From Cystobasidiomycetes sp. EMM_F5 (Eukaryota), in contig JBPGPT010000018.1 of NCBI GenBank assembly GCA_051047955.1, forward strand, positions 124,001 through 188,000: 64,000 bases of DNA, read 5' to 3'. Each line of letters opens with the position of its first letter. Within the stretch, counting starts at the first letter, position 1. Of the stretch, positions 2 through 6,547 are shown one piece after another. The position numbers and the translations under genes were made by a program. The notes below the pieces were generated by a model. It ran no database searches. It saw only the letters and a list, made by a program, of their open reading frames with translations, and was not told the origin of the DNA.

Positions 2-2335
2 TTCAAGCGAAAGGGGTCCACCTCGTCGACTTCCAGTAATTCTAGCGACCATAGGCGAAGCGGACTCGTTGGAAACTCGCGTAATATCCATAATCACGAA
101 CCTCTCTTAACGATTCCCGGGTCTCCTGCCATTACACAACCGCTTTATTCCCCAGCGACAAGCTCTGACGATGGAGACGCGAGGTCTAGTCGAAGTGACC
201 TAGGTCCATTCACTCCTGATGAAGCAATCCCGGGCCACCTCGTACTTCCTCAGACGCGTCCCATTCACTCTCCTTTGGCTTCGCCATCCATCTTGCCAGC
301 TTCTCCGGTTTCTCCAGGCTCGCCCCCAACAATGTCGCTAAAGGCGCCTCAGCCATTAAGTCCTGGGAGAATAGGGACCCTCAGTCCATCCAAGATCTGC
401 GAAGAATCGCGGAGTATCAGTCTCAGCAACGTACCTTCACGAAGCTCGACTCCAGGCCGGGATTTGCAGTCGCAAATTGATAAGGACAGTCCAGGACGAG
501 AGAAGGAGAAGTTGTTGACCAGCGTTTCCAGTCGCAAGGCGCTGCGCACAATGTTGGACGAGTGGGTAAAGTCGATTGTCAGATCTCCCGTCACAGCTAA
601 TTACGGTGCTTCAGCCCTGTTGGTCTGTGGAAGCTAGGCCAATTCTTGGCGTCGGAGATGAACGCGGAAACGCTCGTCTTCTGGTTAAATGTAAGCATGG
701 ATACTGCACCATTTCGGGGCGAACATGACGCTGATACGAGGATTTATACAGGCTGAACAGCACAGGAATGACCTTAAACGGTTATACGCTCTCACACAAA
801 AAATCCATTCCCTTCACATACCTTCACAAGCGCCAATGGCACTGAATATCACGTCGAATGAACGTGCAAGCATCGAGCGCGCAATTCGTTCATTTACCAA
901 AATCGATGACCCTTACAAGGTTGCCAGGGACGCAGCTTTTCAGGCTTTATATCACGACGCGTGGCCACGTTTCTTGCAATGGCGTCTCCAGCTGCTCCAC
1001 AATAAAAGCCAACGTTGTAATAGCGTCAGTATTATTTCACTCAACAATGTGAATCTTCCGGAGCTAACGAGTTCTCGTCTGCCCGTAGCAAAACCAAACC
1101 TCCTTTACCCTGGCAGATCCCAGCCGCGACAGGGATCAGCCTCTGCTACTAGTATCAGATGGTTTCCTTGACCTGACCGGATACAGTCGTCAAGATGTAT
1201 TGATGAGGAATTGCCGGTTTCTGCAAGGACCGGGTACATCCCCCGCTGTGATATCCCGCATACGTCAGGCCAGCAGCGATGGATCCGACATTACGGAGCT
1301 CCTTCTCAATTACCGAAAAGACGGTCTGCCGTTTTGGAGTCTGCTTCGCATCATCGTAAGTCTTGATATTGACTTTCGGTACACAGCAACCTTCAGCTAA
1401 CGTACTTAACGACCCGGCAGCCTTTGCGTAACGCTACAGGCCGCTTAAAGTACCTCCTGGGATGTCAAATCAACGTCACCAGTACACTTGCGGCTACAAA
1501 AGATTTAGCGAATTTACTCAGTGACGACTTGGATCCACTGGATATGCCACCGCGACCACTTTTTGAGGACGACCTTGTTGAGTCCCAGACAGTTCAGACC
1601 AATGAAGCCATGCGAGCGTACCTTACTTCGCTAGATAGCAAAGAAGCCGACCCATTGCATAAGAAGTCTGAAATCGAAAGACGCGATATCGTTGGCCGGA
1701 ACTCTTCAGTTGTGGGCAGTCCCGCTACTGGCTATTTAGATTCACCAGTGATGGGTCGCGGCAACGTGCCCAGTCCAGCCAGTCGCCCTCGATCCGCTAA
1801 TCGGGACATGCATGCAAATGCAGCTGCAGCGTTATTTGATGGATCCGCTGGTATGCAGACAAAAAGCTTTCAGTCGCCAACAGCAAATTTCGGAATGTCT
1901 TCCGCTGCCAGACCGCAAACGTCAGCCAGCTTGTTCGCAAGGCCGGGTACCGCGTATAGTATGGTTGACACGGAGGGCAAGGCGCAAGCACAGCATTCCC
2001 TGGCCGAACAGACACAAGCTTTGAACGATTCCTCGTCTCATTACCTTATTCTGGACAGCAATGTCAACGCAGTCCTATTCCACTCATCCAATCTGCCTGC
2101 AGTGATCCGTATTGGGGCGGATATTGCGAAGATAATCGGTGCTAAAACCGCCAAGCGCGTCAAGGAATCTATACTGGCAGGCGAGCGCACCGTCATCGAT
2201 GCCGTGTCCATGGACGTACCAAGTGATCAGGATCCCACAGGAATCTGGCGGCGAGGTGTTCAACTATCCCTCACACCGTTGAAGGACCAGATCAACGAGG
2301 TTGGAGCTGTCGTCGTTTTGATTTCAACCGACTAG
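2..2335 (+). CDS. RGS-LOV-PAS-like (DUF) blue-light photoreceptor, 5'-partial, spliced
   Basis: Frame open from nt 2. Introns at ~562-615, 691-751, 1025-1088 and 1356-1420 join an RGS domain (LDDPVGLWKLGQFLASEMNAETLVFWLN...DAWPRFL), a LOV domain (FTLADP...SDGFLDLTGYSRQDVLMRNCRFLQG...NYRKDGLPFW...YLLGCQ) and a C-terminal PAS-like region (HYLIL...LTPLKDQINEVGAVVVL). Stop at 2333-2335. Confidence 0.9.
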
Positions 2336-2663
2336 CAGAGTACTGCACGGAATTTTTTTTCGGGATCAGACTCACATCGAAGATTGTAGGAATTTCGAGG
2401 TGGCTTGCTTATTTAGGCATCGTTTTCTAGAGGTTACCGTGCAAAGTAGTTCTCGGGCGGTACTACGCAGTATCTTTGTTTGAAATAGCCGTACATTGTT
2501 GTTGTCATCTGTTCCTACAGGGAAATGGACATTGTGATGCAAATTGTTTTGACAACGACATGGCTCCGCTGCTTCTGCACTTCACTTAGTTCTCTTCATA
2601 TTCTCCCCTATGCTACTTCCGTTATATTCCTGCTGAAGCGTGATAACTTGCAGGCTTTCATAT

Positions 2664-5600
2664 TCAGTCGTCATATTCATTTCCATAGTCCCCTTCACCA
2701 TCGTCGCCAGAATCGTAACTCCGCGCACTCCCGCGACCTTTCCCGCGACCTCTGCCGCGAGTACCACGACCGCGTGATCTACCTGTAGAGCTTTTCCTAG
2801 AGCTGTAGTTACCTCGTGCCCGCTTGCTGCCGCGTCCACGATAGGTTTGGCCGCCATTGTCAGCATTGGAACAACTGGAAGCCATGTGGCTGCATTGGGA
2901 TGAACGAATTTAGATGTCACCTGCAGCATGGGATGGTTGGTAGCATACCCTTCTTGTCCGCAGCGATAGCATGTGTACACGCTAGAGGTTGTGGCAGACC
3001 CTGAGGCTCCGCCACCCTTGCTTGGACACGCCGAAGCCCAATGATCGTTACTGCCACACTACAGGCCGGCCTTGTGTCAGCATGACCTGTAAGACTGTGT
3101 AAAATATCCCAAAGCTCACAGTAAAACAGCCGGAATCGTTGCCATCACCTCGGGCACTTCGTGCATTATTGGAGCCAGCCCCATTTCCACCTCGTCCAGC
3201 TGCACTGGTGCCTGCCTCGTCTGCCCACATGAAGCTGTCGATAGTCACTGAGTATATGGAAAGGTCTTCGTGTTAAAAGAGAACGTACAAGTCGCACCGC
3301 ACGGACTGGCTGACTTTAGAGCACGTAAAGAAAGCGCGGCCGGTATTTGGCTTGCATGATCATGTACTCAGTCTCTCCTGCAGAACCAGCGCTGTACATC
3401 GCACTCACTGCCTTCTGCGTGACTCGCGAAGCTGCCATCAAGTCGCATTTACATCTTGGAGTATCGGCTGGATCAGCGTGCTCCATCTGCATGGTGATTT
3501 AGCCTTAGCGTGCGAGATTTATATACTGCTTACTGCTTCTGCAGCCGTGCGTTTCCGCGGTACAGGTCGACTCGCGGGAGCTGCAGGGCCATTGTCATCG
3601 CACCACTCGAAAAAATTGCAATTTCCGTCATTAAAGGGTTTCGGGCAACTCCAGAAGACCCGGCCGAAGTTTGCGCCCTCTTTCCGCGTCGTTTTCTGCA
3701 CTGCGGCTTCTCCGCAACCGCATTGAGGACCATTACTGTTAGCGTGAGTATCTGGAAGGTACTCCATTGATCAGGGTCGTTCGTAGAGATGGTCTACTCA
3801 CTCACTGCGCACAGCGCCGCCTGCCCTCGGCGGACCGCGATTGTCGTCTCCGTTGTTATCGTCATCGTCGGACGGTGGTCGTGGAGCGCGATTAGGTGGT
3901 CTAGGCGGCACGCCACGACCGCGGTTCGCATGCGTACCTCTGCCTGGCGGAGCACCTCTCCCTGCTTGCGCATTGCCACGGCCTCTACCCCTCCCTCGTC
4001 CTTGACCTCCAGCAGGAGGTCCGTTGTTGTTGTCGTCATCTCCTTGATAGCCATCATCGAAGGCATCGTCGTCGTTGTCACCGTTGTTACCTTGAACATG
4101 CGGAAAGGCACCTTCATCGCCGTTGCCTTCGATAAATTGGCGGACCGTCTATGTGAGCCGTTAGCTTGTTTGCATAGAACAGTGAACTTTCGCTTCATCT
4201 CACCTCAATCAGGGTCTGCAGATTCTGTCTAGTTTTCAAAAACAATTCCCGGTACTCATCGCAACTTTGCTGCAACACATCATTCTTGGTCGTCTGGCCC
4301 GCACATATCGCCGCCATACGCTGCTCCGTCTGAAATTTCGCAATTTTAGTCTCCACTATATGGAATGCATTCAATTGTGATTGCTTACCTCTGCCCGCAA
4401 ATGCGGCTTGGATAGAGACTTATCAAAGCCAATTCGATTGTAACCTTCTACCAGCCCGATCCCGAGGGTTGAGGGGACCAGATAATCGATGCGACCTTCC
4501 CTTTGTCGCATCACATACTCCCGCTCGATGATTTTCGAAATATGTTCGGCTATTGTCGCATCAGTGCCTGCGGAACAAAAGCAAAGCATTTAGAGCATGT
4601 ACATAATCTAGTGCAGGGAGCTCACCAATCCCGTTCTTGTCCATGAGCCCAACGAGATCGGCTTCAGTAAGCAAGTTAGGGCTGGTCGTTGAACCTTCCT
4701 TCAGTTCGCAAACGGTCGGCATGAAACGCTCGCCATTCTGGAAGTTTGGCAGTTGTTGCCCATTCCATTTATCATACGGGTAGACTTCCAGATAATTTCG
4801 CTGAAGCACGATAAGGCCTTCGAGTCTCGCAGTCAGTGTTCCGTCAGAAAGCCGTAGTCTATTCAAATCAGGCTCACCTTTGGCTGTAAATCTCTCCCCA
4901 GCGACATCGGCTTCTACTACTGTCTCAGCTCCCGTCGCATTGCGAGAGCAATTGGCGAGGAAGCGTCGAACGATGAATTCATATACACGCTTATCATCAC
5001 CCTGCAGGTTACCTGCATAGTTGACAGGATGTATTGGAGGATGCGCTTGATCGTTTTTCCTGCCATTCCGCGGAGATTCGAAACCTCCATTACTCAGCAT
5101 TGTTGCGAATTGGCCCCACGAGGGAGACTCTTTTTGTCGGTCAATGAGCTCCTGAAAGTTGAATGCTCGATCATACTGATCCGTCTCGGTACGAGGATAG
5201 CTGACGAAACCTTTCTGGTACAGGCCTTCTGCAATCTCCAGAACTCGCTTCGGCGGGAGACGAAGAAGTCGAGAGCCGCCCTTTTGCAGCTCAACAGTCG
5301 TCAGCGGTAGCGGTTTCCTTCATGGGTGATTAGTCTACAGCGCATATTGCTCCCACATTAGAGAAAGCTTACCATTTTTGGGTGGGTTTATTGGTCACTG
5401 ACGTCACGGTGGCCTCAGGGGCTTCGACGCACTGCTCAAAGAGCACAAAGGCAGCTGCGTAATCGAACAAACGATGCCGCTGCCAGTTGAAAGCCACTTT
5501 GTGGTCGTCTCGCTCGAGCGCGACATGTATATACCAGAATGGCTCCGGCCGAAAATTCTGAACCTCATTATATCGCTCGACGACGAAGCCCAGAGTTGGA

Positions 5601-6547
5601 AATTGGCAGGATCCTGCTCAGGTAACGTAAGATGGAGTCTCGACCGCGGGTATAACGATGCTCACCATAACTGACTACACCTTCTATCGTCCCTGCAAAT
5701 GCACCTTGAAGTGTTACTGTCTGCAGTCTTGTCAGAGCAGCGCCGATGCGTAGGTCCAGCTCGATCCTTGTTTCGACTGCTGCGGCCTGATTCATGTCGA
5801 GCGCGACAGTATTACGCGCAGCATTGTGTATTTGCCTGTTGGAACCGTCAGGAGATGCACTTTGCAAACACATGATGCTGCTGGCGCACGCTGGTATCAG
5901 AGCACTAAAACGTGCACGAGTTATCCGAATGTTTGGCTTGACCTTGCGGCAAACGCTGACGATTTCCGAGCCTATATGCTCGCCTTCTCTGTCACAGTCC
6001 GTCCATATCATGAGTTCTGTTGCTGACCGAGCCTCTTGCTGTAGATTTCGCTCGACTCCCTTCATGTTCTGTTTGACAAAGATGGGCGGTAACGTGTTAG
6101 CATGGCTTTGAGGACGAGTACAATGTTTACTGCACGAACATCAGCTACAAAGTGACTGATAGGAGCATCGAAAAGGGCAAATGGATCGCATGAGTGCCAT
6201 TTCCGGTGTTGTTCTGTAAAGTCGGAGCTCTTCAGATGTCCGGCGACAGATGTGACGGTGAAGTCAGTGTATGCCCCGTTCCCATGCAGACGATAGCTGA
6301 AGTCCCAGTTGGATATGTAGGTGGCCTGGGTGCCGCGCTACAGGCGGCATATGGACCTGTCTGCATCAGCTCAAGAACGTCACGGCAGAACATGGGAGCA
6401 TCTTCACCCTAGTGACGTTTCCCTGACCGAGAATCTGGGCTACAGCTTTTGCTACAGATGGCTTCTCTGCCACGGCGAGCCTGTGGTAGTCTCATCATCA
6501 GCCGGGCTTTGCTTGTTTCGACACGGCTTCCAGCCTTACACCTTCAT
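2664..6547 (-). CDS. TOP3: DNA topoisomerase III (type IA) with RGG-rich linker, 2 GRF zinc fingers and 2 CCHC knuckles; multi-exon
   Basis: Spliced N-terminus MKVLAVAEKPSVAK; Toprim WTDCDREGEHIG; catalytic SYPRTET; DQAHPPIHP; LTEADL..MDKNGIGTDATIAEHI. GRF motif CGCG...GRVFWSC...CNFFEW; knuckles CFTCGSNDHWASAC and CYRCGQEGHMASSC. Confidence 0.95.

Follow-up and report, generated by a model that had tools for sequence, protein, structure and literature searches.

Proteins of the RGS-LOV-DUF family (also RLT), of which BcLOV4, CeRGS and MoRGS5 are the described examples (PMC6099885, PMC12667789), consist of a low-complexity N-terminus, an RGS domain, a single LOV domain with its photoactive Cys and signalling Gln, a linker and a PAS-like C-terminal DUF. 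In BcLOV4, light exposes a basic amphipathic helix (AH1) that carries the protein to the membrane, and AH1 in the LOV-DUF linker is described as 'largely conserved' in the family (PMC6099885). The same source termed the class 'dikarya' in 2018 and counted 7 Basidiomycota among its 66 members, while the string 'basidiomyc' does not occur in the main text of PMC12667789. A role in the host is not established in the literature on the family that we examined, in which light-dependent GTPase-activating protein (GAP) activity is proposed. Here we describe an RGS-LOV-DUF gene from Cystobasidiomycetes sp. EMM_F5, located at 2..2335 of a 64,000-nucleotide stretch of contig JBPGPT010000018.1 (positions 124,001 to 188,000 of the forward strand, assembly GCA_051047955.1); this whole stretch is referred to as the window and the gene product as the window protein.

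With its RGS domain placed N-terminal to one LOV domain, a low-complexity N-terminus and a PAS-like C-terminal DUF, the window protein is, on sequence, a member of the RGS-LOV-DUF (BcLOV4) family. It differs from the family in lacking a polybasic helix where AH1 would lie, in a linker that is longer than in the ascomycete group and carries two conserved R-P-x-S/T blocks, in having Ser at the Asn of the FWN motif and Thr at the position of BcLOV4 C258, and in an RGS box that is more conserved than the LOV domain. The usual membrane helix has been exchanged for kinase-type motifs, so that light may reach G-protein signalling by a different route. We propose, as the likeliest reading, a blue-light-gated regulator of G-alpha with an output other than lipid binding by AH1, in which the linker blocks would serve as a gate through docking or phosphorylation, and we give this reading an even chance.

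The gene occupies the + strand and comprises five exons and four introns, with a single joined frame that is open to the stop codon at 2333-2335. The introns are 53-65 nt long, and every one is GT..AG with a CTRAY-type branch site. The start codon lies outside the window: the first Met of the frame is an ATG at window position -85 (G000:C90 123915), which adds 29 codons and gives a full-length product of 725 amino acids (aa) in which a disordered N-terminus is followed by the RGS and LOV domains, the linker and the PAS fold, the identical domain order to that in the full-length records of relatives P0021, P0037 and P0295. After this ATG, the next Met in the frame is residue 140. The features are as follows.

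2..19, + strand: end of a polybasic amphipathic helix near the N-terminus (residues 18-35 of 725), which begins at window position -34 and is mostly outside the window
2..529, + strand: N-terminal region rich in S/P (35% S+P), disordered and without conservation among relatives
530..994, + strand: RGS domain, residues 206-322, interrupted by introns 1 and 2; equivalents of Asn128 and Asp163 kept, that of Asn88 is Thr
562..614, + strand: intron 1, 53 nt, GT-AG; P0021, P0037 and P0295 read through the junction without a break
691..751, + strand: intron 2, 61 nt, GT-AG; the match of genomic fragment P0014 begins at the corresponding residue
1025..1088, + strand: intron 3, at the RGS/LOV boundary, 64 nt, GT-AG; P0014 and P0020 are uninterrupted here and P0017 carries an insertion
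1095..1480, + strand: LOV domain, residues 335-441, interrupted by intron 4; identified by a PAS_9 match and residue tallies
1356..1420, + strand: intron 4, 65 nt, GT-AG; matches of P0014, P0017, P0020 and P0040 end at the corresponding residue
1478..1636, + strand: acidic segment after the LOV domain, at the J-alpha position, together with a conserved amphipathic helix (residues 481-493); their mean pairwise identities are 0.77 and 0.75
1784..1840, + strand: linker block 1 (RPxSANRD...), an R-P-x-S-A site with an Ala-rich helix after it, defined by conservation in 18 sequences
1910..1960, + strand: linker block 2, two R-P-x-T motifs flanking a Leu/Ile/Met-Phe-x-Arg core, defined by conservation in 18 sequences
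1961..2335, + strand: PAS-fold domain at the C-terminus, a homologue of the family DUF (temperature-sensing domain), with the stop codon; identified by DUF profile and fold model

A sequence-only reading of this locus had joined RGS, LOV and a PAS-like C-terminus by splicing four introns and had pointed to the motifs MRNCRFLQG, FWS and GCQ. The splicing is borne out by the GT-AG introns, the single frame and the agreement of relatives, and the motifs are where they were placed (M 1203-1205 and C 1212-1214, S 1338-1340, and Q 1466-1468, respectively). The genomic fragments P0014 and P0020 hold RGS and LOV within one uninterrupted frame, which rules out that the two are separate genes. The gene is real and its four-intron splicing is confirmed, as far as its own sequence and, independently, its relatives can show. 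Two scans of JGI metagenome contigs for the DNA loci of relatives yielded 40 and 196 pattern matches with none confirmed, and the N-termini of the relatives are therefore known from predicted records only. Were intron 3 kept in the transcript, the frame 695-1171 would end at the stop codon 1169-1171, and the hypothetical product would contain RGS only.

Phylogenetic placement of the subfamily

A profile search with name look-ups showed that RGS-LOV proteins are present in numerous basidiomycetes, in Saitoella, in one chytrid and one blastoclad, and in metagenome records. The closest relatives of the window protein that carry a name belong to Cyphobasidiales (P0037) and to Cystobasidium minutum (P0279), both Cystobasidiomycetes. 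A phylogeny with known RGS-LOV proteins, which had been suggested as a check, was built from the RGS-LOV and PAS domains (403 columns) using 42 rows that we chose from 109 usable ones to span the groups. The window protein, P0021, P0037 and P0295 formed a clade (support 100/100) on a long stem (1.1) that is sister to P0177 (99/94) and, together with P0177 and Saitoella, sister to a main basidiomycete lineage of 25 rows (100/96) that includes rusts, Mixia and Sporobolomyces and excludes the clade. Grouping the clade with the rust and Mixia rows was rejected by the approximately unbiased test (p 3.6e-6), a value that is indicative only since the group was chosen after the trees had been inspected and the branches are long. 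In a quick midpoint-rooted tree of 86 rows, built from RGS-LOV without the PAS domain, the clade fell on the ascomycete side, also outside the main lineage. As the two trees disagree on position, precisely where the clade belongs is uncertain, but both keep it out of the main lineage. By this evidence the Cystobasidiomycete proteins are a subfamily, forming a distinct side branch outside the main basidiomycete lineage.

The sequence-only reading had regarded the protein as a probable basidiomycete variant. Its identity as a basidiomycete RGS-LOV-PAS protein stands, but basidiomycete membership is not new, since seven such members were already listed in 2018 (PMC6099885). Of those seven accessions, the two placed here are Mixia records within the main lineage. 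No description of a Cystobasidiomycete RGS-LOV subfamily was found in the literature searched, most subscription journals being outside it. Both the family and its members in basidiomycetes had been described before; the subfamily apparently had not. RGS-LOV-PAS proteins (P0218, P0253, P0192, P0220, P0225) also occur outside Dikarya, in Paraphysoderma and Quaeritorhiza, and in other records that have canonical RGS boxes; the occurrence beyond Dikarya supports an origin of the family older than the term 'dikarya' implies. A second RGS-LOV copy was sought in the EMM_F5 genome and none was found, the only other LOV found being that of a White Collar-1-like gene (L002, G000:C232:512673-515960), which has the canonical motif GRNCRFLQ in its LOV domain and contains additional PAS-like regions. 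As judged from the assembly, the RGS-LOV-PAS receptor is single-copy.

RGS box and post-LOV linker

Residues were tallied over 87 rows (4 subfamily, 12 ascomycete-group, 7 early or deep, and 64 main basidiomycete lineage), those outside the subfamily being thinned to <80% identity and the group labels being taken from the tree and named members only. The RGS exon alone gave a weak profile match (E 0.034). The joined RGS domains of relatives that are 77-78% identical to the window protein over RGS-LOV scored above the Pfam cut-off (P0021, 37 bits; P0295, 39 bits), and P0021, used as a stand-in, aligned over ∼110 aa with the canonical GAPs human RGS7, RGS1 and RGS2 (E 2e-8 to 2e-7, with 2e-8 for RGS7) and with RGS4 (1e-3). 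The critical GAP contacts of RGS4 are Asn128, Asn88 and Asp163 (PMC8252600). When these positions were mapped through the RGS7, RGS1 and RGS2 alignments, the equivalents of Asn128 and Asp163 were found to be kept in 4/4 subfamily members, as they are in most of the ascomycete group (9/12 and 11/12, respectively), compared with 2/64 and 13/64 members of the main basidiomycete lineage, where the alignment is gappy. All four (4/4) have Thr at the position of Asn88 and Ala at that of Glu126. The equivalents of Glu87 and Arg167, residues with functional roles in RGS domains, are kept. The subfamily differs from the canonical GAPs in the Thr at Asn88 and in its fusion to LOV and PAS domains, and GAP activity is at most predicted.

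The RGS box is also unusually well conserved. Its identity (0.80-0.89) exceeds that of the LOV domain (0.73-0.83) in all six pairs of the four subfamily members, whereas among 579 other pairs with LOV identity of 0.70-0.88, which are not independent of one another, the median RGS identity is 0.33, the maximum is 0.77 and none reaches 0.80. This comparison indicates that the box is under unusual constraint, which would reflect either G-alpha binding or intramolecular packing. The RGS domain of MoRGS5 is reported to bind its G-alpha in two-hybrid assays (PMC6099885). The 18 Mb EMM_F5 genome contains at least seven G-alpha loci over the Pfam family cut-off (contigs C1, C177, C185, C186 and C243) and three other RGS genes. 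Three or four are usual in fungi, fewer than the loci counted here.

The linker is ∼158 aa long in the window protein versus 50-74 in the ascomycete group. In a crude amphipathic helix test (an 11-mer with hydrophobic moment ≥0.40 and charge ≥+2), 50 of 75 family linkers passed while the window protein, P0021 and P0037 failed; the best linker segment of the window protein has a moment of 0.49 and a charge of 0, the latter below the limit of the test. The claim that no obvious polybasic helix follows the LOV domain therefore holds for the window protein. The missing AH1 lowers the case that the protein works like BcLOV4, and leaves untouched its descent from the RGS-LOV-DUF family. The conserved helix at residues 481-493 has a net charge of 0 in the window protein and +2 in Cystobasidium-like relatives.

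The most distinctive parts of the linker are the two blocks. Block 1 is present in 18/18 subfamily sequences and 0/83 others and, with a mean pairwise identity of 0.91, is the best conserved of the eight C-terminal segments measured. In block 2 (identity 0.78, net charge +1 to +2) the second motif is present in 18/18 sequences and the whole block in 17/18, again with 0/83 others. For comparison, identity is 0.57 in the PAS core, and in the two spacers that flank the blocks it is 0.29 and 0.38. Together the blocks hold three R-P-x-S/T motifs, versus 0-1 in other family linkers (72 rows). The Ime2/Crk1 kinase consensus is R-P-X-S/T-R/P/A (PMC7349709), and DYRK kinases share its Arg and Pro determinants (PMC4228266). 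With R, P or A required at +1, two of the motifs are full matches and one has Ser at +1, the positions being conserved. The blocks are thus candidate docking or phosphorylation sites, a motif match falling short of proof of phosphorylation. Both blocks have a predicted local distance difference test (pLDDT) score <50 in a single-chain model of P0021, and the ESM Atlas gave no usable match for them, which indicates neither novelty nor absence.

A protein without AH1 might still behave like BcLOV4 if light exposed a different basic helix, either the N-terminal one or, in Cystobasidium-like members, that at 481-493. The N-terminal helix (residues 18-35; hydrophobic moment 0.60, net charge +5) resembles the family AH1 (medians 0.51 and +3) and is the sole N-terminal segment among 75 rows that passes the helix test with a charge above +2. 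It was not seen in any of the three relatives with full-length models (P0021, P0037, P0295), whose 5' ends may be incomplete; it was rejected as a subfamily trait and is a lead for this species only. It is also separated from the RGS domain by ∼170 disordered residues, and the 481-493 helix is uncharged overall in the window protein. Block 2 retains a hydrophobic-Phe-x-Arg core with its Phe 11 residues before the PAS cap, versus a median of 21 for AH1 centres (35 rows), which is near the AH1 site and not at it; the block may be a proline-broken remnant of AH1, but it has two prolines and a charge of only +2. The same loose helix test is passed, at other helices, by 10/18 subfamily linkers, 8/11 tested ascomycete homologues are reported to translocate (PMC12667789), and additional lipid sites are allowed for in BcLOV4 (PMC6099885). 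Taken together, membrane recruitment in the manner of BcLOV4 appears unlikely, if still a serious candidate.

The conservation of block 1 would also suit a photoactive protein in which the RGS domain is a non-catalytic scaffold or dark-state cage and the output is clustering, or partner binding, at the linker blocks. The Thr and Ala at the Asn88 and Glu126 equivalents are in keeping with this, as are reports that the BcLOV4 RGS domain inhibits membrane binding in the dark (PMC6099885) and that its post-LOV region drives clustering (PMC12667789). Against it, the equivalents of Asn128, Asp163, Glu87 and Arg167 are all kept and the constraint on the RGS box is stronger than in any of the 579 matched pairs, and we consider such a role improbable.

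Flavin pocket, terminal regions and neighbouring genes

The LOV exon matches PAS_9 (E 6e-11), and the predicted model of relative P0021 matches the LOV structures of aureochrome and phototropin. Kept in 4/4 subfamily members are Cys374, Gln437, Asn373, Arg375, Gln378, Arg391 and Asn406, a set that covers the adduct Cys, the signalling Gln, the NCRFLQ motif, the Asn482 equivalent and the phosphate-binding Arg residues, while the changed positions are Thr339, Ala341, Gln349, Leu351, Met371, Ser416 and Leu433. Met371 takes the place of the motif Gly. That position is also non-Gly in BcLOV4 and in total in 21/83 other members, and BcLOV4, with Pro before RNCRFLQ, still photocycles with a recovery of 18.5 s (PMC6099885); Met is therefore unremarkable and was rejected as a special feature. 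Ser416 replaces the FWN Asn (AsLOV2 N492) and is Ser in 8/8 relatives covering the site. The Asn is replaced by Cys or Ser in 33/83 other members (Cys in 32/64 and Ser in 1/64 of the main lineage). In AsLOV2, N492 is a flavin contact, and the N492A variant retains its peak at 448 nm, with a recovery time of 54 s versus 80 s (PMC3903614). The flavin pocket had been called non-canonical on account of this Met and Ser. Both residues are present, but their oddity was overstated, given the Pro of BcLOV4, the 33/83 members without Asn and the photocycle of N492A, and changes with a larger known kinetic effect, the equivalents of V416T, N425Q and I427L, were overlooked, as were the linker blocks, the strong conservation of the RGS box and the basic helix at the N-terminus, of which only the end falls inside the window.

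The first of these is Thr339 at AsLOV2 V416 (BcLOV4 C258). Of six subfamily sequences with a clean model, five have Thr there and one has Ala, and Thr is present in 0/83 other family members; Gln349 and Leu351 occupy the N425 and I427 positions. The four fastest variants of an AsLOV2 screen include V416T (2.6 s), N425Q/I427V and N425S/I427L/I466M (PMC3867380). The window protein has Thr, Gln and Leu naturally at those sites but differs from the variants in its added slowing changes and in its scaffold, so that the effect is a prediction. Further changes are Ala341 at T418 and Leu433 at F509 (numbering counted along the alignment), two AsLOV2 positions with a role in the flavin pocket. By analogy with AsLOV2, the LOV domain is predicted to work and probably cycles fast (seconds to tens of seconds). 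It would be otherwise if the domain had ceased to be a light sensor, through weak flavin binding or a change to redox or temperature sensing, leaving the RGS domain constitutive or thermally tuned. Six pocket-lining positions differ from AsLOV2 together, and the pocket mutants N482A and N492Q of AsLOV2 failed to express (PMC3903614). Yet the subfamily shows no variation at the Cys, at the Gln or at the Arg residues that bind phosphate, and N492A, V416T, N414S and, in a double variant, N425Q still photocycle (PMC3903614, PMC3867380). Even with a C-terminal thermosensor described in BcLOV4 (PMC12667789), we regard the loss of light sensing as very improbable.

The main basidiomycete lineage (Wallemia, Mixia, rusts, smuts, Mycena and Athelia) shares the architecture and has often lost the FWN Asn, and differs in mostly keeping AH1 and in a degenerate RGS surface. 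Its FWN Cys (32/64) is a second pocket Cys. With this Cys, its GAP residues mostly lost and AH1 mostly kept, the lineage is, as far as sequence comparison can tell, the mirror image of the subfamily. The adduct Cys is missing in two main-lineage rows (Pro and Ser; among P0189, P0187 and P0211, of which P0189 was inspected directly), and non-photoactive RGS-LOV paralogues therefore probably exist.

The C-terminal 125 aa have a predicted fold (pLDDT 88) with a PAS match and a Foldseek template modelling (TM) score of ∼0.6. The best structural match has a Z of 11.7 (VIA; PAS-B domain; root-mean-square deviation 2.6, 95 aligned), with many PAS and LOV chains tied near Z 10. The family DUF profile, which included two subfamily members, scores 59.8 bits on this region. 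The DUF is reported to be a temperature sensor in BcLOV4 (PMC12667789, a preprint). The C-terminal domain of P0192 scores directly as PAS in Pfam, which supports the identification of the DUF as a PAS domain. At the other end of the protein, the long S/P-rich N-terminus, taken at first for an oddity, proved to be a family-wide trait: family N-termini have a median length of 230 aa and 25% S+P (74 rows), and the 35% of the window protein, measured over 200 aa, is near the top. The corresponding part of the P0021 model has pLDDT <50.

A DNA topoisomerase III-type gene (window 2582-6140, minus strand; Toprim, topoisomerase, GRF zinc ribbon and a weak zinc knuckle) converges on the RGS-LOV gene. 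Upstream, we take L003:4368-6070 (+), whose first exon has no Pfam match, to resemble a membrane-anchored glucanase, and L003:2864-4171 (-) is, judging from its translation, presumably phosphoserine aminotransferase-like. The neighbouring genes give no suggestion of a functional cluster. A perfect 18-bp palindrome lies between genes at L003:6413-6430, ∼490 nt upstream of the ATG, and may be a chance occurrence.

A proposed route from light to G-alpha signalling

Starting from the observed architecture, residues and conservation, we propose a scheme in which flavin binding, kinetics, G-alpha binding, phosphorylation and the direction of the light effect are predictions. According to established LOV chemistry, the LOV domain would bind flavin and form an adduct at Cys374 in blue light; Gln437 would pass on the change, and dark recovery would probably be fast. 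The conserved RGS box would still engage a G-alpha subunit. Light would loosen the contacts between RGS, LOV and linker and free the post-LOV segment and the RGS domain, altering GAP access or activity, with the linker blocks as a docking or phosphorylation gate for kinases of the Ime2/Crk1 or DYRK (R-P-x-S/T) type. In this species the N-terminal basic helix may act as a membrane tether, any membrane contact then arising from outside AH1. We infer from these features that light may control G-alpha directly, as the sequence-only reading had suggested.

Several observations weigh against this regulator of G-alpha with an output other than AH1. Failure in the helix test is shared by 22 non-subfamily linkers, and 8 of the 10 subfamily linkers that pass the loose test do so at the helix matching 481-493 (+2), so that lipid binding may still occur. 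The R-P-x-S/T motif is common, being carried by 651 Cryptococcus proteins (PMC7349709) and occurring in up to 3 copies in the N-termini of other family members. The 18 subfamily sequences are related, many of them near-identical, and are therefore not independent. In the RGS box, one of the three critical GAP contacts is Thr in 4/4, and conservation could stem from packing against LOV and not from G-alpha. The window protein also has Ser at the N414 and Leu at the F494 equivalents, the latter being the family norm, and in AsLOV2 both N414S (685 s) and F494L (206 s) slow recovery (PMC3903614). With fast- and slow-type changes together among about six in the pocket, the net kinetics cannot be obtained by summation.

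Having the most constrained RGS box among the members compared and no usual lipid helix, the subfamily is well suited to the question of whether the RGS domain of these proteins is a real light-gated GAP. It also provides a trial, made by nature, of pocket substitutions that have been introduced into engineered LOV domains, and a possible cytosolic or fast-cycling scaffold of the BcLOV4 type; if its behaviour is like that of BcLOV4, it would be one further family member. A bolder proposal, which we think speculative and rather improbable, is that this old RGS-LOV side branch, retained by Cystobasidiomycete yeasts, is a natural fast-cycling, light-switched GAP with a fully active RGS domain that is freed allosterically without a move to lipid and is gated by Ime2/Crk1- or DYRK-type phosphorylation, tying light to mating or nutrient state. 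If true, the family would have a second signalling mode, and the protein would offer a one-piece tool to switch G-alpha off with light.

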